Source of the DNA: Methanobacteriota archaeon
GTDB taxonomy: Archaea > Thermoplasmatota > Thermoplasmata > Methanomassiliicoccales > UBA472
DNA: 64,000 nucleotides
Direction: 5' to 3'
Assembly: GCA_012729095.1 (NCBI GenBank)
Contig: JAAYDU010000027.1
Span: 1,238 to 65,237 of the forward strand
The position numbers were made by a program, and so were the translations under genes. The notes below the pieces were generated by a model, which had not been told where the DNA came from, ran no database searches, and worked only from the letters and a program-made list of their open reading frames with translations. This document shows positions 1 to 23,850 of the stretch, piece by piece. Numbering within the stretch: position 1 is the first letter of the stretch; each line of letters opens with the position of its first letter.

Positions 1-1
1 C

Positions 2-286
2 GGTTACGTGGGGGGCCTGCACTACACCCATTTCTCGGGCGTGGAGCACGAGGGCGGCAATGAACGGAGGGTAACCCCGATCAAGAAGGGAGACCTGCGC
101 TTCGAGCCCATGGCCGAGTATTTGGCCGACGCCAACCTGAACGCTACGATCATATCCAGCTCGCCACTGCTGGAGCACGATGCCATGTACATGAAGGTCA
201 TCTACGAGAGGGTGATGACCAAGCGGGTGTCCAAGGACATCAAGGTCAAGAAGGGCAAGGGCGCCAAGGACGATGATGAGGAGTGA
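2..286 (+). CDS. C-terminal part of a xylose-isomerase-like TIM-barrel / AP-endonuclease-2 family protein (5' end outside window)
   Basis: The frame is open to the left edge. The tail HYTHFSGVEHEGGNERRVTPIKKGDLRFEPMAEYL resembles the C-terminal metal-binding strands of endonuclease-IV-like TIM barrels. The TGA stop at 284-286 overlaps the GTG start of the next gene (GTGA). Confidence 0.4.
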   Translation, partial: GYVGGLHYTHFSGVEHEGGNERRVTPIKKGDLRFEPMAEYLADANLNATIISSSPLLEHDAMYMKVIYERVMTKRVSKDIKVKKGKGAKDDDEE

Positions 287-822
287 AGGAGACCACGGCC
301 TACGTTCTTGAGGAGGTCAGGCGAACCATCGAGCGGGTGGACGAGTCCATCATCGATGAGATCGTCGAGATACTTGCCTCCGCTCCTAAGATATTCATTT
401 ACGGCGTCGGGCGCTCTGGCCTGGTGGGCGAGGCCCTGGCGGCCCGCCTGGTACAGCTGGGACTTAACGTTCACTTCGTGGGAGACACGACCACCCCCAT
501 CGTGGAGAGGTCGCATGTCGTGCTCATATTCTCCAACACCGGGGAGACCATGTCAGCGGTGCAGACCGCCAACATCGTTCGCCGGCTGGGAGCCGTCGTG
601 ATCAGCATAACAGGCAGTGCCCATTCCAAGCTGGGCATAGCCAGCAACATCGTCCTGGAGCTAGTGCAGCCCAGGGACGAGCGTAAGAAGAAGAACGCCC
701 CCCTGGGAACCATCTTCGAGCTGTCCAGCATGGTGATGATGGATTCCATGGTTCCGTTGCTCATGGCCAGGCTGGACCAGGACGAGGCCTCGCTTCGCCG
801 CCGGCACGCCATATGGGTATGA
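283..822 (+). CDS. SIS-domain sugar-phosphate isomerase, probably 6-phospho-3-hexuloisomerase (RuMP pathway)
   Basis: 179 aa. The string IFIYGVGRSGLVGEALAARLVQLG...LIFSNTGET...ISITG is the SIS phosphosugar-binding pattern, and the size is typical of PHI. GTG start coupled to the upstream gene. Confidence 0.7.
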   Translation: MKETTAYVLEEVRRTIERVDESIIDEIVEILASAPKIFIYGVGRSGLVGEALAARLVQLGLNVHFVGDTTTPIVERSHVVLIFSNTGETMSAVQTANIVRRLGAVVISITGSAHSKLGIASNIVLELVQPRDERKKKNAPLGTIFELSSMVMMDSMVPLLMARLDQDEASLRRRHAIWV

Positions 823-1401
823 TCACATCCTGATCTTCTTGGGCCGCACGCTCTCCCCATAATAGGGGTTCTGGAACTCGTCCCAATAGACCAGGAACTT
901 TCGGCGGAGGACCTCGCCGTCCGAGAGGCAGAAGGCGTCCATCTCCTTTCGCACGGGGTCCACCACCAAAGCGGTGTGGTATGGCCGGTCGAACATGCCC
1001 TTCTGAGTGGAGATGTCCGTGGAGGAGAGGAAGCAGCCGTGCCCGGGATGGGAGTGATACCATCCGACCAGCACGTAGCGGAACCTGGCGCACTCCAGGG
1101 AGGCGAACAGCGCCTCAAAGCCTTCCGGATCGAACCTAACGCTGACCGAGGTCGCCTCCAGATCGGTGGTGGCCACATCTCGCACCACGGTGTACTCCAC
1201 GCCCTGGTGGGTGAACACCTCACCGAGAAGGAAGCCCATGACCTCCAGGCCTTCCTTCACCTTGGAGAGGGCGTGATTGCGCACCTTCTCCTCGGCGGTC
1301 TTGAACAGGTACATCTCCGCCTTCTTGCCGGAATACATCGGCAAGGCCTCCTTGGGGAGCCATTTATGAGGCAGCGTCCTCTCCTGGGCCGGAGGGGACA
1401 T
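823..1401 (-). CDS. Rpn11/CSN5-like JAMM (MPN+) metalloisopeptidase of the ubiquitin-like cassette
   Basis: Carries EVMGFLLG (catalytic Glu) and VGWYHSHPGHGCFLSSTDISTQ, i.e. E...HxHx7Sx2D. The start is taken at the ATG at 1401 (MSPPAQ...), preceded by GGAGGTGGAGGAG. The longer track ORF to 1629 overlaps the E2 gene out of frame. Confidence 0.85.
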   Translation of the reverse strand: MSPPAQERTLPHKWLPKEALPMYSGKKAEMYLFKTAEEKVRNHALSKVKEGLEVMGFLLGEVFTHQGVEYTVVRDVATTDLEATSVSVRFDPEGFEALFASLECARFRYVLVGWYHSHPGHGCFLSSTDISTQKGMFDRPYHTALVVDPVRKEMDAFCLSDGEVLRRKFLVYWDEFQNPYYGESVRPKKIRM

Positions 1402-1445
1402 CTCCTCCACCTCCAGGTCCTTCCCTCCCAGGATGACCGGCCCCT

Positions 1446-1952
1446 TCAATGTTTCACCACCTTCGGGGCGGGGACCACGATCAGGGGAGGCATTCTCCTG
1501 GGGGAGGAATTGAAGTACTGGGCAGCGGCGGTGCAGGTGTCGGTACCGAACGGGCTGCTGCCGTTCGGGGATATGAGTAGGGATTCCAGCCCCTTGATGA
1601 ATGTGGACAGCGTGGAATTGAAGGACCATTCCGAAAGCAGCTTGATGCAGACATGCCCCCCGTCCTCTGGCATCATGATATTGGGATGGAATATAGGCGT
1701 CCTCCAGATCACCAGCGGCTTTTCGAACGGGTACTCCCGGCCGATGATCAGCTCCATCCTGTGGCTGTAACGATAGGATATGTTCCCGTTCTCCATTACC
1801 GGACCAGGGGTGCCTTCCAGGGATATCTCCACCTTGAGAGGGAACCTCGTCAGATGCTCTTCGCTGTGATCGAAGTCGGGAGGGAGGTTGTGACGGCAGG
1901 CCTCCAACTCGTTCCTCAACCTGATTAGAAGTATCTCCAGGGGCAGGGTCAT
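1446..1952 (-). CDS. UBC-fold ubiquitin-conjugating enzyme (E2)
   Basis: 168 aa. REYPFEKPLVIWRTPIFHPNIMMPEDGGHVCIKLLSEWSFNSTLSTFIKGLESLLISPNGSSP matches the UBC core (YPF.xP.V.F.T.I.HPNI...G.IC...L..W......LL..PN...P). HPN is at residues 89-91 and the candidate catalytic Cys is residue 102. The start overlaps the Ubl stop (ATGA). Confidence 0.85.
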   Translation of the reverse strand: MTLPLEILLIRLRNELEACRHNLPPDFDHSEEHLTRFPLKVEISLEGTPGPVMENGNISYRYSHRMELIIGREYPFEKPLVIWRTPIFHPNIMMPEDGGHVCIKLLSEWSFNSTLSTFIKGLESLLISPNGSSPFGTDTCTAAAQYFNSSPRRMPPLIVVPAPKVVKH

Positions 1953-2194
1953 ATCTTCCCGCCCTCAGGGTCGGGTATCAGCTCCAGCTCCTCGTTCGAC
2001 TGTATGTCCAGTTCCTGCACCTTTTGCTGCCCCCTCAGCAAGCGCCGGCCCTTGCGTATGACATAAGCCCCTGGGTCCTTCTCCCAATAGGCCGAAACGC
2101 CCTCGATTATCTCCTCCACGGTGTTCTCCATCTCCAGTTCCATGTCGACCGTGGCCCCGGTCTCTGCGTTCCTGACCCTTACCCTTACCACCAT
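1949..2194 (-). CDS. Ubiquitin-like beta-grasp modifier precursor (C-terminus ...EGG-KI)
   Basis: 81 aa. The pattern MVVRVRVRN / ATVDMELE / helix NTVEEIIEGVSAYW / AYVIRKG / ELELIP fits a beta-grasp. A di-glycine at residues 78-79 is followed by two extra residues. It sits between the E1 and E2 genes. Confidence 0.75.
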   Translation of the reverse strand: MVVRVRVRNAETGATVDMELEMENTVEEIIEGVSAYWEKDPGAYVIRKGRRLLRGQQKVQELDIQSNEELELIPDPEGGKI

Positions 2195-2224
2195 TTTATC
2201 GGACCGGGCAATCCCTGGGGAGCA

Positions 2225-2260
2225 AGTATAATCCTTTCCATTAGAGTCAGTATTATGATA
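2225..2260 (-). promoter_or_regulatory. A/T-rich island in the E1-Ubl spacer, a possible internal promoter for ubl-E2-JAMM
   Basis: The minus strand reads ...ctgattatcataatactgactctaatggaaaggattatacttgc... about 30-65 nt upstream of the Ubl ATG (2194). This is the only A/T-rich patch inside the cassette. Confidence 0.3.
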
Positions 2261-2261
2261 A

Positions 2262-3086
2262 TCAGACAGCGGGATGGTTGGGGCACCCCTGATCTATGTC
2301 CAGGGACAGTATGTCACTGGTCCCCGCCAGGCCGTCGTAGTGCATGACATGCTCCATGACCGGACGATGGGAAACGATCTTAACGGCCTCCCGCACCTGC
2401 ACCGCGGCTATGATGCTGGTCGTCGTTATCTCGGCGGCCATCTTCGGCCGGTAGAAGACGGTGTCCTGGCCGGTGCAGCTGAACCGGCGTTCCATGACCT
2501 TGAAGTGGCTGCGGTTCATACCGCATTGAAGGCAGGGGGTCAGAGGGGGCATCACCACCTGCACCCTTCCCCGGAACCCGTCGGTGCCCCCGTCCACGTA
2601 CGGCACTCCGGCGTGATAGGAATTGGCGTTCAGATGAAGCCTCGCCGCCACGTTGTCCAGGCACCCCAGTATCAGGTCGTAGCCCTGCATCTCAACAGGC
2701 CCCAAGGATTGAACCCTTTCCTCGATGGCCTGGACCTCCGCCTCCGGATACAGGTCCCGCGCCCTTTCCGCCACCAGCGAGGCCTTGCCCCTCCCGGACC
2801 GCTGGTCCCCCTCCCGGAACAGCACGCAGCGGTTGAGGTTGGAACGCACTACCGTGTCCATGTCAAGAACGTCCACTTTCCGGAAGCCGAACAGCATCAG
2901 GTCCTTGACCGCCTCGTTCCCCAGCGCTCCGGCGCCGACCACGAGGACCCGGGCCCTCTGCACGCCCTCCATGTCCACCCAGGAGATACGCCTGGTCCGG
3001 TCGTGGCGGTCATCGTCCCTTTCCCCCGGGCGTATGGATTGGGGCATGGGAAACGGACCGCGCCCTGAGTATAAAACGAACGACAT
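2262..3086 (-). CDS. ThiF/MoeB/UBA-family ubiquitin-like activating enzyme (E1), adenylation domain only
   Basis: Carries the Rossmann loop VLVVGAGALGNE, LDMDTVVRSNLNR, CLDNVAARL, PYVDGGTDGFRGRVQVVMP and CLQC...FSCTG...CPNH. An alternative start is the ATG at 3047, which lies about 26 nt downstream of a TTTTATA element (see 3068-3078) and would give a leaderless mRNA. Confidence 0.85.
   Translation of the reverse strand: MSFVLYSGRGPFPMPQSIRPGERDDDRHDRTRRISWVDMEGVQRARVLVVGAGALGNEAVKDLMLFGFRKVDVLDMDTVVRSNLNRCVLFREGDQRSGRGKASLVAERARDLYPEAEVQAIEERVQSLGPVEMQGYDLILGCLDNVAARLHLNANSYHAGVPYVDGGTDGFRGRVQVVMPPLTPCLQCGMNRSHFKVMERRFSCTGQDTVFYRPKMAAEITTTSIIAAVQVREAVKIVSHRPVMEHVMHYDGLAGTSDILSLDIDQGCPNHPAV
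3068..3078 (-). promoter_or_regulatory. Putative TATA box for the E1 operon
   Basis: The minus strand reads cgTTTTATActc. The spacing to the ATG at 3047 is about 26 nt, as expected for an archaeal leaderless transcript. It lies in the divergent region shared with ppk. Confidence 0.3.
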
Positions 3087-3172: not shown

Positions 3173-5299
3173 ATGCCAGCCCGAAGGAGCAGCGCAGACC
3201 AGAGGAAAGGTGTTCGTGAACGGAGCTCAGTGAAGCGGCCCGCGGACACGCCCTTCATCAACCGGGAGATCAGTTGGATCAGGTTCCACCAGCGCATACT
3301 TGAGGAGGCGCAATGCACCGACCACCCCCTCTTGGAAAGGGTCAAGTTCCTGGCCATATGCGGCAGCAACCTGGACGAGTTCTTCATGGTGAGGGTGTCC
3401 GGCCTCAAGAGGCAGCTGAAGAAAGGTGCCTTGGAGACCCCGCCGGACGGCCTGACCCCCCTGGAGCAGATGGAGGTCGTCAACGAAGAGCTGCTGCCAC
3501 TGCTAGAGGCCCACGGCAAGCTGTGGTACGAGGACCTCCTGCCCAAGCTGGAAGCGGCGGGGATCACCATACATCGCGTGAAGGACCTGGACACGGGCAG
3601 GCGCCAGGGATTGCGCGATTACTTCGAGAGGATGATATTTCCAGCGCTCACGCCCTTGGCCCTGGACTTCAATCAGCCATTCCCGTTCATTTCCAATCTC
3701 AGCATAAACCTGGCGGTCAGCGTGAGACACCCCCAGCGAGGGGACCGCTATGCCCGGGTGAAGGTGCCCCTGGACCTGTTTCCCCGCTTCGTCCCCCTTC
3801 CGGGGAGCTCTCCGGGAAGGAAGCAGGAGTTCGTCCTGCTGGAGGACCTGGTGGCCGACAACCTGGACCTCCTGTTCCCTGGAATGAAGGTCAGGTACTC
3901 GCACATGTTCCGCATCACCCGAGACGCGGACATCGAGATAACCACCGATGAGGCGGAGGACCTGCTGACGGCCATAGAGGAGAGCGTGGAGACCAGGAGG
4001 ATAGGCTCGCCGATCCGCCTGGAGGTGGGCAAGGACATGCCGGACAAGCTCGTGGACCTTTTCGCCACCAAGCTTGGATTGCATCAGCTCATGGTTTTCC
4101 GTTCCCACGCCCCGCTGTCCATGGTCAGCTTCTGGGACCTTCTGTCGCTGCACCGCCCGGACCTCAAGGACCCGCCCTTCCTTCCGTTCGTCCCTGCGGA
4201 CCTGATGCCGGAGAAGTCCCTCATGACCGCGGTGGAGCATCGTGACAGGCTTTTCTATCACCCCTACGACAGCTTCGTGCCCCTGGTGAACTTCCTGAAG
4301 CAGGCGGCCAACGACCCGCAGGTACTGGCCATCAAGATCACTCTTTATCGCATAGACAAGCATTCCCCGGTCATCGACGCCCTCATGGAGGCGAGGGAGA
4401 ACGGCAAGGCGGTGGCCGCGGTGGTCGAGCTGAAGGCGCGCTTCGACGAGGAGAACAACATAGTATGGGCTAGGGCGTTGGAGAACGCCGGGGTGCACGT
4501 GGTGTACGGGCTGATGGACCTCAAGGTGCACGCCAAGCTGCTGCTGGTCGTTCGGAAGATGGGGGACAGGATAGTCCGCTACAGCCACATGAGCTCGGGG
4601 AACTACAACGCCCAGACATCCCGCATCTACGGCGACATAGGTTACCTCACGGCCGACCAGGACATAGGGGCTGACGTGGCCGACCTGTTCAATTTTTTGA
4701 CAGGCTATTCGTACAAGGACTCCTACCGGAAGCTGCTGGTCGCCCCGGTGACCCTGAAGGACGAGATGATCGCCAAGATAGACCGGGAGACCGCCCGGCA
4801 CCTGGAGCATGGAGATGGATACATAGCGTTCAAGCTGAACGGGCTTCTTGACCCGGACGTGATACAGGCGCTGTACCGGGCGTCCCAGGCGGGCGTTCGC
4901 GTGGACCTGAACGTGCGCGGCCTCTGCGCCCTGCGACCCGGCGTCAAGGGGCTGAGCGAGAACATCCGTGTGAACAGCATAGTCGGGCGCTTCCTGGAGC
5001 ACGCCCGCATCTACTATTTCCGAAACGGCGGGGAGGAGGAGGTGCTGCTGGGGAGCTCGGACATGATGCCCCGCAACCTGAAGAGAAGGGTGGAGGTGCT
5101 CTTCCCCGTCCTGGACGAGGGATACCGCCGCATGCTCGTGGACAGGATACTTCCCATCCACCTCATGGACAACACCAAGTCCAGGGACATGCTGCCCAAC
5201 GGGACCTATGTCATGAGGAAGAGGGGAAAAGGAGAGGAGAAGGTGGACTCCCAAGAATGGCTGATAGGGAACCGTGGTTACTGGCACGGGGAGGAGTAG
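3173..5299 (+). CDS. ppk: Polyphosphate kinase 1
   Basis: 708 aa. N-terminal FINREISWIRFHQRILEEA. The autophosphorylation-site context is LKVHAKLLLVVR. The C-terminal PLD-like repeats contain GRFLEHARIYYF. TAG stop. Confidence 0.9.
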   Translation: MPARRSSADQRKGVRERSSVKRPADTPFINREISWIRFHQRILEEAQCTDHPLLERVKFLAICGSNLDEFFMVRVSGLKRQLKKGALETPPDGLTPLEQMEVVNEELLPLLEAHGKLWYEDLLPKLEAAGITIHRVKDLDTGRRQGLRDYFERMIFPALTPLALDFNQPFPFISNLSINLAVSVRHPQRGDRYARVKVPLDLFPRFVPLPGSSPGRKQEFVLLEDLVADNLDLLFPGMKVRYSHMFRITRDADIEITTDEAEDLLTAIEESVETRRIGSPIRLEVGKDMPDKLVDLFATKLGLHQLMVFRSHAPLSMVSFWDLLSLHRPDLKDPPFLPFVPADLMPEKSLMTAVEHRDRLFYHPYDSFVPLVNFLKQAANDPQVLAIKITLYRIDKHSPVIDALMEARENGKAVAAVVELKARFDEENNIVWARALENAGVHVVYGLMDLKVHAKLLLVVRKMGDRIVRYSHMSSGNYNAQTSRIYGDIGYLTADQDIGADVADLFNFLTGYSYKDSYRKLLVAPVTLKDEMIAKIDRETARHLEHGDGYIAFKLNGLLDPDVIQALYRASQAGVRVDLNVRGLCALRPGVKGLSENIRVNSIVGRFLEHARIYYFRNGGEEEVLLGSSDMMPRNLKRRVEVLFPVLDEGYRRMLVDRILPIHLMDNTKSRDMLPNGTYVMRKRGKGEEKVDSQEWLIGNRGYWHGEE

Positions 5300-5304
5300 G
5301 GGCC

Positions 5305-7449
5305 ATGGAGGAACTGTGCGCATACGGGAGGACCATCATCGCCCAAAGGCTGGAGGCCCTCCTGGCCGAGGTCGACGGGGTGCGCAGGGGGGAAGACATC
5401 GAGTGCGTGCATCGCATGCGAGTGGCCTCCCGGCGTCTGCGATCGGCGCTTCGCCTGTTCGGGGATTGCTTCAAAGGGAAGAAGGCCAGGAGATGGCGGA
5501 AGGCGGTCAGGGAGGTCACCTCCTCGCTGGGAGAGGCGCGCGACCTGGACGTGCAGATCGATCTGCTCGGTAGCATCTCTGAGGACTGGGAGGGGGAGGA
5601 GGCGGTAGGACTCGCCCTCATCATGGAGATGCTGAAGTGCAGGAGGGCTTCCCTGCAACCGGGCGTAATCACGATGATGGACGCCATCGTCGCGGATGAC
5701 GCGTTCCAGGAGATGGGGTCCGATATCTCCGCGGTGAAGGAGATGGGAAAGGACCTGTCATCGCTGCACCCTTACGCTTTCGCCCATGCCGCGGTCGCGG
5801 TCGAGGAGATGATGGAGCACTCCCACTCCGTTCCCGTTTACGAGGACTGGCCGGGACATCACGCCCTGCGCATAGCGGGGAAGCATCTCCGCTATGCCCT
5901 GGAGGCCTTCCGGGAGGCCTATCCCGACAGGCTCAACGACGAGCTCAAGGTCCTCAAGGGACTGCAGGACGTGGTGGGAGAACTGCACGATTGCGACGTC
6001 TGGTTGCAGCGCTTGCCCGGACTGAGGGAGGAGGCCCCCCTGGCCATTGCGGCCATCGATCGCCTCCAATCGGTGTTCGAGGCTCGCCGGAGGGAGCTGC
6101 ACGTAAAGCTCGTGGAGCGCTGGTACTGTCTGATGCAAGAACGCTTCATGTACAGGCTATTGGACAAGCTGAAGGGGCGCCGGTCGGTGGAGACATGCCC
6201 GGTGAAGGTAGCCCTTATCTCCGACGTGCACGGGAACGCTTCAGCCCTCAAGGCGGTGATGGAAAGCGCCCGAAGCAGAGGTGCCACCGCCTTCCTGAAC
6301 GCCGGGGACTCGGTGGGCCTCCCAAGACCCGTGGAGTCCCTGCAGATGCTGAGGGAGCGGGACGTGCTAAGCGTCATCGGCAACATAGACCGGGCCGCGC
6401 TCAGGGCCGCCGCTGGAAAGAAGGTGCGGGACCGGCAGCTGGAGATGGCGGCGCAATCGATGGGGAAGGAGGACCTTGAATGGCTAGGCTCGTTGCCCGA
6501 GGAGCTGCGCCTGGACATATGCGGGCTGACCGTGCTGGTCACCCACGCCTCCCCCGGACAGGAGGCGGAGAAGCTTACCGTGCACACGCCCGATGCCCGG
6601 CTGCGCTTCCTGGCCGGAGAGAGCGGGGCGGACATAATCATCACCGGGCATTCCCATGCCCCCATGGCAAGGGATTGCGTCGGGACCCTTTTCATAAACC
6701 CGGGAAGCGTGGGGCGACCGCGCGAGGGGCCCGAGGCATCCTACGCCCTGTTGGACCTTCCTGCCCTGCGCGTCGAGCTGCTGAGGGTGGCATACGACTT
6801 TGAAGGCGTTGCCGGTGAGCTCCGGGCCCAGGGGTTCAAGGACCTGCCCAGGGAGCTGGAGGAAGGACGGACCAGGGACAAGGTGTTGGAGGCGGGAGCG
6901 TGGGCGGAACCGTTGCACGGTGACCGCCGGCACGCGGACCAGGTGAGGACCCTGGCCGCGCTCATCTTTGACGGTACCCGGGGATCGCATCGCCTGGACC
7001 CCAAGGACCGCGAGCTGCTTGAGATGGCGGCCATGGTGCATGACGTGGGTTTCGGAGAGGGCGCTGAAGGGCATCAGAGAAGGGCTCTGGACATCGTGAT
7101 GAAGACGGATATGGATCTCGACGAGGTCGAGCGGAGAATGCTGGCCTGCGTGGCCCGCTATCACGGCCTGCGCTCCCCGCGGCGGGGAGACCGGGTGTTC
7201 AAGGAACTGACCGAGTCGGAGCGGGAGAGGGTGGTCAAGCTATCGGCGATCCTGGCCCTGGCGGACGGCCTGGACCGAGGACATGCCTCCCTGGTCGGAG
7301 GCCTGGATGTGTCCATCGGGAAGGGTTCCGTGAACATCGTCATACAAGGCCAGGGAGACCTTTCCCTGGAGAGGGAGTGGGGGGCTCGCAAGGGACAGCG
7401 CCTCGCCAAAGCCCTCGACCGGGAGGTGATCGTCGTTGACCGAGAATGA
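5305..7449 (+). CDS. Fusion protein: CHAD domain + calcineurin-like metallophosphoesterase + Ppx/GppA C-terminal HD-like domain
   Basis: CHAD signatures: VHRMRVASRRLRSALRLF, LGEARDLDV, HALRIAGKHLRYALEAF. Metallophosphoesterase motifs: ISDVHG, AGDSVG, GNID, VTHA, GHSH. The C-terminal ~175 aa are paralogous to the C-terminus of the neighbouring Ppx (HADQV...AAMVHDVG...ARYH...LADGLDRGH). The ATG at 5305 follows GGGGAGGAG. The track ORF start at 5257 would overlap ppk. Confidence 0.8.
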   Translation: MEELCAYGRTIIAQRLEALLAEVDGVRRGEDIECVHRMRVASRRLRSALRLFGDCFKGKKARRWRKAVREVTSSLGEARDLDVQIDLLGSISEDWEGEEAVGLALIMEMLKCRRASLQPGVITMMDAIVADDAFQEMGSDISAVKEMGKDLSSLHPYAFAHAAVAVEEMMEHSHSVPVYEDWPGHHALRIAGKHLRYALEAFREAYPDRLNDELKVLKGLQDVVGELHDCDVWLQRLPGLREEAPLAIAAIDRLQSVFEARRRELHVKLVERWYCLMQERFMYRLLDKLKGRRSVETCPVKVALISDVHGNASALKAVMESARSRGATAFLNAGDSVGLPRPVESLQMLRERDVLSVIGNIDRAALRAAAGKKVRDRQLEMAAQSMGKEDLEWLGSLPEELRLDICGLTVLVTHASPGQEAEKLTVHTPDARLRFLAGESGADIIITGHSHAPMARDCVGTLFINPGSVGRPREGPEASYALLDLPALRVELLRVAYDFEGVAGELRAQGFKDLPRELEEGRTRDKVLEAGAWAEPLHGDRRHADQVRTLAALIFDGTRGSHRLDPKDRELLEMAAMVHDVGFGEGAEGHQRRALDIVMKTDMDLDEVERRMLACVARYHGLRSPRRGDRVFKELTESERERVVKLSAILALADGLDRGHASLVGGLDVSIGKGSVNIVIQGQGDLSLEREWGARKGQRLAKALDREVIVVDRE

Positions 7450-8995
7450 GAGGGGAAAGGTGGTGGCATTCCTGGACGTCGGCACGAACTCCGTGCGGCT
7501 GCTGGTGGTGCGCATTAACCCCAACCGTTCCTACACCATCATCAGCGAGCAGAAGGAGATGGTGAGGCTCGGCGAGCAGGAGTTCCGGAGCGGGGTCCTG
7601 CTGGAGAGCGCGATGGAAAGGTCGGTCAGGGTCCTGAAGAACTTCTGCGACCTTTCCCGGACCTACGGCGTGACCGAGTTCGTGGCCATGGCCACCTCGG
7701 CCACCAGGGAGGCCTCGAACCGAGCCGAGCTGGTCGATCGCGTGAAGGAGGCCACCGGGCTGGAGCTGCAGGTCATCTCGGGCAAGGAGGAGGCCAGGCT
7801 GATATACATGGGCGTTTCCACCGGCCATCACATCGGCCGCAAGAAGGCCATGTTCCTGGACATAGGAGGGGGGAGCACCGAGCTGGCCCTGGGCGACCAG
7901 AGCGAGCATTCATATCTGGAGAGCCTCAAGGTGGGGGCCGTCCGCCTAACCACCATGTTCGTGAAGAAGCCGGACGCGCCTGTACCGGATGCCGTGCTGG
8001 CCAAGATGCGCAAGTACGTGAAGAGCTCCCTGGTGCGGGCCAGAAAGGAAGTGCTGCAGGGCAAGGTATCCCTGGCCTTCGGCAGTTCCGGGACCATAGT
8101 TAACCTGGGCGAGATCCTGATGCGCCATGACAGCAGCTCGCACCCGGGCGTGATCAGGTACTCCCAGCTGAAGAAGCTGGTCCCGTACCTGGCCGGAATG
8201 GACCTGGCGGCCAGGCGCAAGGTGCAGGGCATGAACCCGGACAGGGCCGACATAATCGTGGCCGGGGCGATCATACTGGAAACGGCGATGGACGAGCTTA
8301 GGCTCAGCGAGATAGCCGTTAGCCAGCGTAGCATGAGGGACGGCATGCTCCAGGATTACCTGGGCGGCCTGGAGGAGTTCCCGGGCTTCCGGGAGCTTTC
8401 CGTGCGGGAAAGGAGCGTCATACAGCTGGGGCGCGCCTGCTCCATAGACGAGGAGCATGCCAGGCGGGTTACGGCCATCGCCCTGGAGCTGTTCGACAGC
8501 GCTGCCAAGAAGGGATTGCACACCATGGGAAAGAAGGAGAGGGAGATACTGCAGCACGCGGCCTTCCTGCATGACGTCGGCGATTTCATCTCCTTCAACG
8601 ACCATCACCTACACTCGCACTACATCATATGCCACGCCGAGCTGCTGGGGTTCTCCAACAGGGAGGTGCTGCTCATGGCCAACGTGGCAAAGCACCATCG
8701 GAAGCGAGCGCCGAAGCTCGGGGCGGTCGACCTGCGCGAACTGGACGCCAAGGACCAGCAGGCGCTCGTGCGCCTCTCCACGCTGCTTCGCATGGCGGAG
8801 AGCCTGGACCGCTCGCATTCCAACCTGGTGCAGAACGTTCGCTTCAGCAAGGTGACCAAGCGCGCGGTGAAGCTCATAGTCACCGCCAGCGGGGACCCTC
8901 AACTGGAGATGTGGCGCATGGAGGAGGACCGCAAGGCGTTCAAAAAAGCCTATGGAAGGGACCTTACGGTGGTTCTTAACAACATCGATGGATGA
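7436..8995 (+). CDS. ppx: Exopolyphosphatase (Ppx/GppA family)
   Basis: Carries VAFLDVGTNSVRLLV and LDIGGGSTELAL (actin-like ATPase phosphate loops) and a C-terminal HD-like domain (AAFLHDVGDFIS...HHLHSHY). The TTG start at 7436 overlaps the previous gene by 14 nt. A GTG at 7460 is an alternative start. Confidence 0.85.
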   Translation: MTENERGKVVAFLDVGTNSVRLLVVRINPNRSYTIISEQKEMVRLGEQEFRSGVLLESAMERSVRVLKNFCDLSRTYGVTEFVAMATSATREASNRAELVDRVKEATGLELQVISGKEEARLIYMGVSTGHHIGRKKAMFLDIGGGSTELALGDQSEHSYLESLKVGAVRLTTMFVKKPDAPVPDAVLAKMRKYVKSSLVRARKEVLQGKVSLAFGSSGTIVNLGEILMRHDSSSHPGVIRYSQLKKLVPYLAGMDLAARRKVQGMNPDRADIIVAGAIILETAMDELRLSEIAVSQRSMRDGMLQDYLGGLEEFPGFRELSVRERSVIQLGRACSIDEEHARRVTAIALELFDSAAKKGLHTMGKKEREILQHAAFLHDVGDFISFNDHHLHSHYIICHAELLGFSNREVLLMANVAKHHRKRAPKLGAVDLRELDAKDQQALVRLSTLLRMAESLDRSHSNLVQNVRFSKVTKRAVKLIVTASGDPQLEMWRMEEDRKAFKKAYGRDLTVVLNNIDG

Positions 8996-23682: not shown

Positions 23683-23755
23683 GGGCTCATGGTCTAGCGG
23701 TTATGACGTCTCCCTGACACGGAGGAGGTCTCCGGTTCAAATCCGGATGAGCCCA
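23683..23755 (+). tRNA. tRNA-Val (anticodon GAC)
   Basis: Hand-folded cloverleaf: acceptor GGGCTCA/TGAGCCC; D arm GTC-TAGCGGTTAT-GAC; anticodon stem TCTCC/GGAGG with loop CTGACAC; T arm TCCGG-TTCAAAT-CCGGA; discriminator A. No encoded CCA and no intron. Confidence 0.9.
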
Positions 23756-23850
23756 CTTACGATCACAAGCGATCGAGCTTCTTTCGATCGGACAGGGATT
23801 TTCGTTCGATCGTCCATATTCGGTCTTTCGTTCTCGTCCAGCGGCGTGAG

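Follow-up and report, generated by a model that had tools for sequence, protein, structure and literature searches.

How does a ubiquitin-like protein (Ubl) become competent for conjugation when its gene runs on past the Gly-Gly motif, and what is the extra piece for? This question is raised by a small gene in a stretch of 64,000 nucleotides (nt), hereafter the window, from a methane-producing Methanomassiliicoccales archaeon of the UBA472 lineage (assembly GCA_012729095.1, contig JAAYDU010000027.1, positions 1,238 to 65,237 of the forward strand). The gene lies at 1949..2194 on the minus strand, comprises 81 amino acids (aa) and a stop codon, and is the second of four co-directional minus-strand genes, encoding an E1-like activating enzyme, the Ubl, an E2 conjugating enzyme and a JAMM metalloprotease. 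Translation of the minus-strand open reading frame (ORF) 2194..1949 gives MVVRVRVRNAETGATVDMELEMENTVEEIIEGVSAYWEKDPGAYVIRKGRRLLRGQQKVQELDIQSNEELELIPDPEGGKI (81 aa), which bears out a preliminary description of this DNA in which the di-glycine (residues 78-79) was said not to be C-terminal and to be followed by a Lys-Ile tail; the overlap of the Ubl stop with the E2 start, described there as an ATGA, is equally real. The answer that is favored here, with a probability of about 0.7 and by analogy with characterised systems, is that the Ubl is made as a precursor that would be both trimmed and deconjugated by the JAMM protein of its own cassette, the tail being a by-product of the gene overlap.

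The Ubl ORF is a genuine gene, not a chance ORF, because it has many homologues and because its product yields a confident beta-grasp model with ubiquitin-type structural matches. A protein search returned 157 homologues (lowest E-value 6e-42), and those with a named organism came from Methanomassiliicoccales or Thermoplasmata metagenome-assembled genomes, where they are annotated as "hypothetical protein"; when one genome was scanned per species, at least 224 species-level genomes proved to encode a relative. The AlphaFold2 model, built on an alignment of 37 sequences, had a mean predicted local distance difference test value of 92.9 and a predicted template-modelling (TM) score of 0.82. It displays the beta-grasp topology in the order strand-strand-helix-strand-strand-strand, with low confidence only in the last residues. 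Foldseek comparison of this model with the PDB gave ubiquitin variants, SUMO1, Hub1 and the Caldiarchaeum ubiquitin (CsUb) as the best matches (TM 0.80-0.86, E about 1e-7), with a low identity to ubiquitin of about 14-21% in the structural alignments. A phmmer search of the PDB paired Ubl residues 11-79 with ubiquitin residues 8-76, which places G78-G79 on ubiquitin G75-G76. The Pfam ubiquitin family PF00240 scored 17.8 bits (E 0.0028), i.e., below its gathering score of 25.4, so that the protein is a divergent Ubl and not ubiquitin proper. By analogy, the 81-residue product is probably the precursor of a ubiquitin-type protein modifier, with attachment to lysines via its terminal glycine predicted. 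It consists of the beta-grasp core (residues 1-74), an invariant C-terminal arm, E71-L-I-P-D-P-E-G78-G79, and the tail K80-I81. On the minus strand, G78 is encoded by GGC at 1963..1961 and G79 by GGG at 1960..1958, and the tail by AAG ATA at 1952..1957 (K80 at 1957..1955, I81 at 1954..1952), followed by the TGA stop at 1951..1949. Gly79|Lys80 is the predicted scissile bond.

The conservation of this C-terminus is sharply divided at the second glycine. The arm ELIPDPEGG is invariant or nearly so in the alignment of 37 diverse homologues, in which both G78 and G79 are invariant, and it is present in 118 of 120 protein clusters, the remaining two stopping short of the C-terminal motif. Locus comparisons were made on 80 fetched loci, all from Methanomassiliicoccales/Thermoplasmata; across all 80 the arm is near-invariant and the Gly-Gly invariant. 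What follows varies freely. A tail of 1-15 unconserved residues occurs in 45 of the 80 species-level loci and is missing from 35 (44%), the lengths being 0 aa (n=35), 1 aa (n=21), 2 aa (n=14), 5-6 aa (n=9) and 15 aa (n=1). Similarly, 48 of the 118 protein clusters that reach the C-terminus end exactly at Gly-Gly and 70 continue for 1-10 residues whose sequences are unrelated (NR, SR, A, C, KR, KW, CHVPAC, YRAPPQ, ALFAIPQHMI and others). On a neighbor-joining tree of E2+JAMM, presence or absence of the tail switches at least 5 times and its length changes at least 9 times. Even the nearest relative (L001), with a Ubl 99% identical to that of the window across residues 1-79, has NR in place of KI and so differs at both tail positions. 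An alignment of homologues had been proposed as a check on whether Gly-Gly plus a short tail is conserved, and the outcome was split: the Gly-Gly is conserved and the tail is not, given the 35 loci and 48 clusters that end at Gly-Gly. The invariant Gly-Gly and the free variation beyond it imply that Gly79 is the functional C-terminus and that anything after it is expected to be removed.

E1 enzymes adenylate the terminal Gly carboxylate of ubiquitin-type modifiers, as demonstrated for an archaeal system (PMC5654768), and since many of the orthologues are tailed, a trimming activity should be generally available in these organisms. That the tail simply stays on, so that the Ubl either does not function or is activated in its tailed form, is scarcely credible. 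This idea has no direct support, and it is opposed by all characterised E1 chemistry, in which the terminal Gly carboxylate is adenylated, as well as by the finding that uncut CsUb is refractory to E1 (PMC5654768, PMC6043591). A retained tail would also sit badly with the pattern of conservation, as the Gly-Gly is invariant and the terminal residues are not, and with the purifying selection on the whole cassette in the window's clade, within which the identities amount to 90-99% for the Ubl, 78-89% for the E2 and 78-90% for the JAMM.

If the tail is not conserved, where does it come from? The length of the tail is set by the geometry of the Ubl/E2 junction, and this is the most useful new point of the analysis. 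In 64 of 76 loci the E2 start follows the second Gly codon by 2-8 nt, and the tail is accordingly the stretch translated in the Ubl frame up to the first in-frame stop. Where the junction reads GGN GGN TGA/TAG nn ATG there is no tail; GGN GGN NNC TGATG gives one residue; GGN GGN NNN NNA TGA, the ATGA overlap, gives two; and an E2 start at +4, with the Ubl frame running 17 nt into E2, gives six, these six-residue tails being E2 N-terminal codons read out of frame. The window belongs to the third type: the Ubl TGA (1951..1949) and the E2 ATG (1952..1950) share an ATGA. In such two-residue tails, the second codon is NNA, its last base being the A of the E2 ATG, and this constraint brings R, K and I to that position, including in the AAG ATA TGA of the window. 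In the window's clade, each of the 14 fetched loci shows the ATGA geometry and a tail of two residues (the tails include NR, SR and NK), and an assembly error or pseudogene as the source of the tail was ruled out by this same junction geometry in all clade members. The KI tail is, on these sequences, better read as a tolerated by-product of the gene overlap than as a conserved or designed propeptide.

The same data speak to the proposal that the tail is a selected regulatory propeptide, with the JAMM as gatekeeper of Ubl activation, so that conjugation would proceed only where the deconjugase is present and active. The stability of tail length within clades, such as the two residues in 14/14 loci of the window's clade, is in its favor, and a requirement for JAMM activity before the Ubl can be charged would be a sensible safety device. 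However, the tail sequence is unconserved even among near-identical Ubls (KI versus NR), the junction geometry with the E2 start fully accounts for the tail length, 44% of the species do without a tail, with at least 5 gains or losses, and the 6-aa tails are nothing but out-of-frame E2 codons. A selected propeptide is improbable in the light of these observations.

The closeness of the two genes might also serve translation. The constant spacing of 2-8 nt is suggestive of the Gly-Gly codons acting as the Shine-Dalgarno sequence of E2, and coupling by termination and reinitiation is an equally good reading of it. Against the Shine-Dalgarno reading, the first Gly codon is nearly always GGC, giving GGCGG, and the GGAGG form occurs in only 2 of 80 loci; loci with a spacer of 20-21 nt have their own GGAG/GGGGG element ahead of the E2 start. 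An Rfam scan of the 64-kb window found no rRNA, hence no anti-Shine-Dalgarno sequence to read.

Two side observations concern the stop codons and a locus that points to a cultured relative. Many relatives stop the Ubl with TAG right after Gly-Gly or after one tail residue (L018, L020, L049, L051, L055-L066, L068-L070, L072 and L075-L079). In some Methanomassiliicoccales genes UAG is decoded as pyrrolysine, and it may be speculated that read-through in these TAG-ending Ubls would add a tail, or lengthen it, up to the next in-frame stop near the E2 start. The Ubl of the window stops with TGA, and TAG is the stop in 14 of 54 crude window ORFs. In a locus of the M. luminyensis type (L081:2760-3017), the Ubl ends in ELIPDPEGG-AHAPSR, i.e., with a 6-residue tail and a 17-nt overlap into E2. 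The E2 of this locus is identical to the NCBI entry for the Methanomassiliicoccus luminyensis E2 ("ubiquitin-conjugating enzyme E2"), and from these sequences it is very likely that a cultured organism, M. luminyensis, makes a Ubl precursor with a six-residue tail. The L081 cassette is flanked by genes for an IS605 OrfB/Cas12f-like TnpB and a DDE transposase.

Whether the Ubl is conjugated at all is a question for the enzymes encoded beside it. The E1 (2262..3086, minus strand, 274 aa) consists of a single ThiF-type adenylation domain (Pfam ThiF, 1.4e-46), and its best PDB relatives are the SUMO E1 subunit UBA2 (3.6e-26) and the NEDD8 E1 subunit UBA3 (1.7e-25), MoeB and ThiF being weaker at about 4e-15. 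In an alignment of 68 relatives, which are about 260-281 aa long, the motifs GxGxxGNE, DMD, NLxRC and GCLD and the zinc site C185xxC188...C268xxH271 are kept. The crossover loop, only about 25 residues in length, carries the motif R-[FHY]-S-C204-T-G, with Cys204 present in 67 of the 68. There is neither a separate CYS domain nor a C-terminal ubiquitin-fold domain (UFD), and the protein ends three residues past the CxxH zinc ligand. The E2 (1446..1952, minus strand, 168 aa) is of the canonical UBC type, with H89-P-N91 and the catalytic Cys102. It matches Pfam UQ_con PF00179 with 54.1 bits (1.6e-14; cut-off 27), its PDB matches are eukaryotic E2s with E-values down to 1.3e-9 in alignments that span HPN...C, and HPN and the cysteine are kept in at least 95% of 74 sequences. 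The start codon of E2 agrees with tblastn alignments of relatives, which begin at residue 1-3 in 76 of 80 loci.

A short, ThiF/MoeB-like E1 (274 aa, with a zinc site and no CYS or UFD domains) could seemingly point to a sulfur carrier, i.e., to a Ubl that is a non-conjugated beta-grasp protein of the MoaD/ThiS/SAMP kind, whose tail would be irrelevant or handled as it is there; the sub-gathering ubiquitin score of the Ubl (17.8 versus 25.4 bits) can be counted on the same side. This is very improbable. A canonical UBC E2, with HPN and catalytic Cys, is part of the same overlapping unit in all loci, and to our knowledge sulfur-carrier pathways work without an E2. In addition, UBA2/UBA3 match the E1 far better than MoeB/ThiF do, the JAMM is Rpn11-like, and the fold matches of the Ubl are ubiquitin, SUMO and CsUb. 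No molybdopterin or thiamine genes were found among the annotated neighbors, which encode a SIS-domain protein, an AP-endonuclease and a polyphosphate module.

The protease that would expose Gly79 is most simply sought in the fourth gene, for an Rpn11-like JAMM/MPN+ metalloprotease (823..1449, minus strand, 208 aa). The TTG start at 1447-1449 overlaps the E2 stop (TTGA), close relatives having ATG at this place (ATGA), and an alternative ATG lies at 1401. Together with the ATGA of Ubl and E2, this overlap leaves the three downstream genes closely packed. The protein matches Pfam JAB above threshold (7.3e-14) and Prok-JAB with 2.6e-7. The zinc motif is intact, E69 ... H132-S-H134-PGHGCFL-S142-ST-D145, and its residues are kept in at least 95% of 68 sequences. 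Yeast Rpn11 was the best PDB match (3.1e-16), together with human Rpn11, CSN5 (1.2e-13) and the Caldiarchaeum Rpn11 homologue (5.5e-11), and the segment that corresponds to Ins-1 aligns with yeast Rpn11. The preliminary description had taken the cassette to be self-contained, and this holds: four genes are present, including a JAMM with an intact E...HxH...S..D motif that is nearest to Rpn11. Wherever a locus extends far enough, Ubl, E2 and JAMM adjoin each other in one constant order, and E2 was found in 80/80.

Two characterised relatives supply the precedent for a JAMM that performs both reactions. The Caldiarchaeum enzyme CsRpn11 removes the 9-residue propeptide of CsUb exactly after Gly-Gly and also cleaves conjugates (PMC5654768, PMC6043591), in line with the preliminary description. 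In the bacterial Bil system, BilC cleaves BilA at one residue from the end, deconjugation being its second activity, and homologues of BilA carry up to 9 extra residues (PMC10557695). Further, Fuchs et al. described that prokaryotic JAMMs nearer to Rpn11 sit in operons with ubiquitin, E1 and E2 homologues, and Fort et al. (2015) listed the JAMM of Methanomassiliicoccus luminyensis as one of two archaeal Rpn11-like proteins (PMC4453063). The JAMM is kept in loci with and without a Ubl tail, including all 35 tail-less ones, so that its conserved role must be something other than maturation. The conserved job of the JAMM is therefore most likely deconjugation, and tail trimming would come from the same specificity, as an enzyme that cuts the isopeptide bond after ...PEGG would also cut the peptide bond after Gly-Gly. 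The earlier proposal that the JAMM both matures the precursor and reverses conjugation is supported by these comparisons and by the two precedents, but maturation cannot be the conserved purpose of the enzyme.

The retention of the JAMM in the 35 loci where the Ubl ends in Gly-Gly can be turned in another direction. The tail might be removed by a different peptidase, either a general carboxypeptidase or a JAMM encoded elsewhere, with the cassette JAMM acting as an isopeptidase on conjugates only, and the fact that most tails are of 1-2 residues, within the reach of exopeptidases, agrees with this. On the other hand, in both characterised relatives a single JAMM, that of the cassette, carries out the two reactions (PMC6043591, PMC10557695), some tails are 5-15 residues long, an exopeptidase would have to halt exactly at Gly-Gly, and the cassette and its conserved neighbors contain no further candidate. 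A separate trimming enzyme is therefore considered unlikely, though it deserves to be kept in mind.

The sequence of events that is proposed for the JAMM-processed precursor is as follows. Ubl and E2 would be translated in a coupled manner via the ATGA overlap, and E2 and JAMM via TTGA, with Ubl-E2-JAMM probably transcribed from their own promoter. In the initial product, Lys80-Ile81 would block the Gly79 carboxylate; the Rpn11-like JAMM would bind the ELIPDPEGG arm and hydrolyse the Gly79-Lys80 bond. The short E1, of the homodimer type, would then adenylate Gly79, with the thioester probably formed on Cys204 of the crossover loop, and the Ubl would be handed to Cys102 of the E2, from which lysines could be modified without a dedicated E3. 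Conjugation would be undone by the same JAMM at the Gly79-Lys isopeptide bond. The tail would be tolerated since a peptidase specific for Gly-Gly is always present.

A number of points weigh against this scheme. Cleavage by the cassette JAMM is argued by analogy with other families. As 44% of the species have a tail-less Ubl and keep the JAMM, presence of the JAMM is in itself no evidence for maturation. With its acidic, proline-rich character the PDPEGG arm departs from LRLRGG and from the TVGG of CsUb, and recognition is therefore not simply transferable from the solved complexes. A tail of two residues could be within reach of a general carboxypeptidase. The N-terminus of the JAMM is uncertain owing to the TTG start. 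Finally, another part of the genome could encode an E3, as E3-independence is assumed from the search of the cassette and the window, where no ORF of at least 40 aa fitted a RING-type Cys/His pattern (a crude regular expression).

How does this cassette relate to the ubiquitin-like systems that are already known? The closest comparison is with the Caldiarchaeum operon, which comprises CsUb, E1, E2, a RING E3 (srfp) and CsRpn11, and which, like the window, is archaeal, with a Ubl carrying residues after Gly-Gly and a UBC-type E2. The free-standing, Rpn11-like CsRpn11 matures and deconjugates, and for the likewise Rpn11-like JAMM of the window the same dual activity is predicted. The window Ubl counts CsUb among its best structural matches (TM 0.85-0.86), CsRpn11 matches the window JAMM with 5.5e-11, and overall the parts belong to the families known from the eukaryote-like Caldiarchaeum/Asgard systems. 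The differences are nonetheless considerable. The small RING E3 (srfp) of the Caldiarchaeum/Asgard-type operon has no equivalent in the cassette or the 64-kb window, and the E1 of that type has a UFD and a Cys-bearing insertion, whereas the 274-aa E1 of the window has neither. The JAMM of the window lies within the operon, co-directional with E2 and overlapping it, while that of Caldiarchaeum is juxtaposed and divergent. The C-terminal arm is IPDPEGG as against ...TVGG, the tails range over 0-15 residues as against the 9-residue propeptide of CsUb, and the host belongs to the Thermoplasmata, not to the Aigarchaeota or Asgard. Hennell James et al. gave archaeal clusters I-III, and the accessible part of their text does not name the Thermoplasmata taxa that have the cassette.

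The bacterial antiphage system Bil (BilABCD) is a further counterpart: it is a four-gene cassette of Ubl, E2, JAB and E1 without an E3 and with variable Ubl tails, and its JAB peptidase, besides deconjugating, takes off the one or few residues that follow the reactive Gly (PMC10557695). Membership in Bil was nevertheless ruled out, as the E2 and E1 types differ and PADLOC gave no match. In detail, there was no hit for BilA, BilB or BilC, BilD matched weakly (1.1e-5) and over the adenylation core only, and the JAMM matched as a generic JAB (E at least 1e-3). The E2 of the window is a UQ_con protein with HPN and not of the Bil type, and its E1 has no counterpart of the inactive adenylation domain or the helical CYS domain of Bil. 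Unlike Bil, the cassette sits in a housekeeping-like setting that is syntenic across the class (63-68 of 80 loci), not in a defense island. A defense-system identity more generally (Bil, or CBASS Cap2/Cap3) was discarded as well, since PADLOC returned only generic E1 and JAB similarity.

With the eukaryotic ubiquitin, NEDD8 and SUMO precursors, which are processed by DUBs/ULPs, the window Ubl shares the beta-grasp fold and, as predicted for the window, the exposure of Gly-Gly by removal of C-terminal residues. The enzymes are also eukaryote-like, the E1 being nearest to UBA2/UBA3, the E2 having HPN-Cys and the JAMM being nearest to Rpn11/CSN5; in score, E1, E2 and JAMM are all nearer to their eukaryotic equivalents (UBA2/UBA3, UBC and Rpn11) than to those of bacterial or SAMP type. 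The system differs from the eukaryotic ones in having no polyubiquitin or ribosomal-protein fusions, a predicted maturation by a JAMM versus a cysteine protease, a single-domain E1 and no E3. Archaeal sampylation (SAMP/UbaA/JAMM1) resembles the window in its beta-grasp protein with C-terminal Gly-Gly, its similarly sized ThiF-type E1, and a JAMM able to trim precursors in addition to removing conjugates. However, sampylation proceeds without an E2, whereas the E2 of the window is obligatory, its gene overlapping those of Ubl and JAMM and occurring in 80/80 loci; the presence of this canonical E2 rules out membership in the SAMP family. Also unlike sampylation, the JAMM of the window fits the eukaryote-type Pfam JAB (7e-14) over Prok-JAB (3e-7) and is nearest to Rpn11. 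The family is a so far uncharacterised representative of a known type of system, not previously described for the Thermoplasmata in the searchable literature, in which, apart from the M. luminyensis JAMM listed by Fort et al., no description was found of the cassette, its Ubl, the PDPEGG arm or the tails.

The proposal of a separate promoter for Ubl-E2-JAMM comes from the 67-nt spacer between E1 and Ubl (2195..2261, minus strand), a candidate promoter region. It contains a B recognition element (BRE)/TATA-like element, GGAAAGGATTATAC, at 2239..2226 (minus strand), some 35 nt ahead of the Ubl ATG, and when the upstream regions of 80 loci were compared, the relatives (most of L001-L080) had cGAAA-n3-TTTAA/TTATA at the same position. 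This element suggests that Ubl-E2-JAMM probably have their own promoter, and it agrees with this that E1 is displaced by 1-4 kb in L035, L050, L051, L053, L056 and L058-L060, while Ubl, E2 and JAMM are never separate. A second conserved non-coding motif, approximately TTATCA-n5/6-yTRAyTnTRAT, is situated at about 2240-2262 (minus strand), right upstream of the TATA-like element and just past the E1 stop, and is found also in the upstream regions of L001-L047. A regulator might bind here; the motif has a variable spacing, which a rigid IUPAC pattern missed.

No gene besides E1, Ubl, E2 and JAMM lies between the flanking SIS and PPK genes. The SIS-domain gene (283-822, plus strand; Pfam SIS 5e-16) is convergent with JAMM and stands beside the cassette in 68 of 80 loci. 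The gene ahead of it (1-286, plus strand) is cut by the window start, is AP_endonuc_2/xylose-isomerase-like in L081/L082, and is kept in 63 of 80 loci. This SIS/AP-endonuclease synteny holds even where the cassette proteins are only about 40-60% identical to those of the window, and the neighborhood looks, from its gene order, housekeeping rather than island-like. On the other side, divergent from E1, a polyphosphate module (3173-8995, all on the plus strand) starts with PPK1 (3173-5299), continues with a fusion of CHAD, a calcineurin-like phosphoesterase and Ppx/GppA domain III (5257-7449) that overlaps the PPK1 end, and closes with Ppx/GppA (7436-8995); it adjoins the cassette only in the 13 closest loci. 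A tRNA-Val (GAC) at 23683-23756 on the plus strand was the sole Rfam/ARAGORN match in the 64-kb window.

The mechanism itself would be unsurprising; what stands out is a minimal, eukaryote-like family that is widespread and can be approached in a cultured archaeon. It is conceivable, and offered only tentatively, at rather less than even odds, that a vertically inherited, housekeeping ubiquitylation system independent of an E3 operates across the Thermoplasmata (at least 224 genomes), with eukaryote-like parts and an evolutionarily labile tail that arises from the Ubl/E2 overlap and is kept only by virtue of JAMM trimming. For annotation, the lesson is that short tails after Gly-Gly in prokaryotic Ubls can stem simply from overlapping junctions and need no conservation, and that such small Ubl genes still carry the label "hypothetical protein" in source annotations. 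If the broader proposal were true, eukaryote-type ubiquitin machinery would not be confined to Aigarchaeota and Asgard, and a minimal system of E1, E2 and deubiquitinating enzyme would be available in the cultivable Methanomassiliicoccus luminyensis. It would then be a tractable system for following how an Rpn11-type JAMM works alone and how an E2 picks its targets without an E3, and it would give arguments on the origin of the eukaryotic ubiquitin system a wider phylogenetic base.

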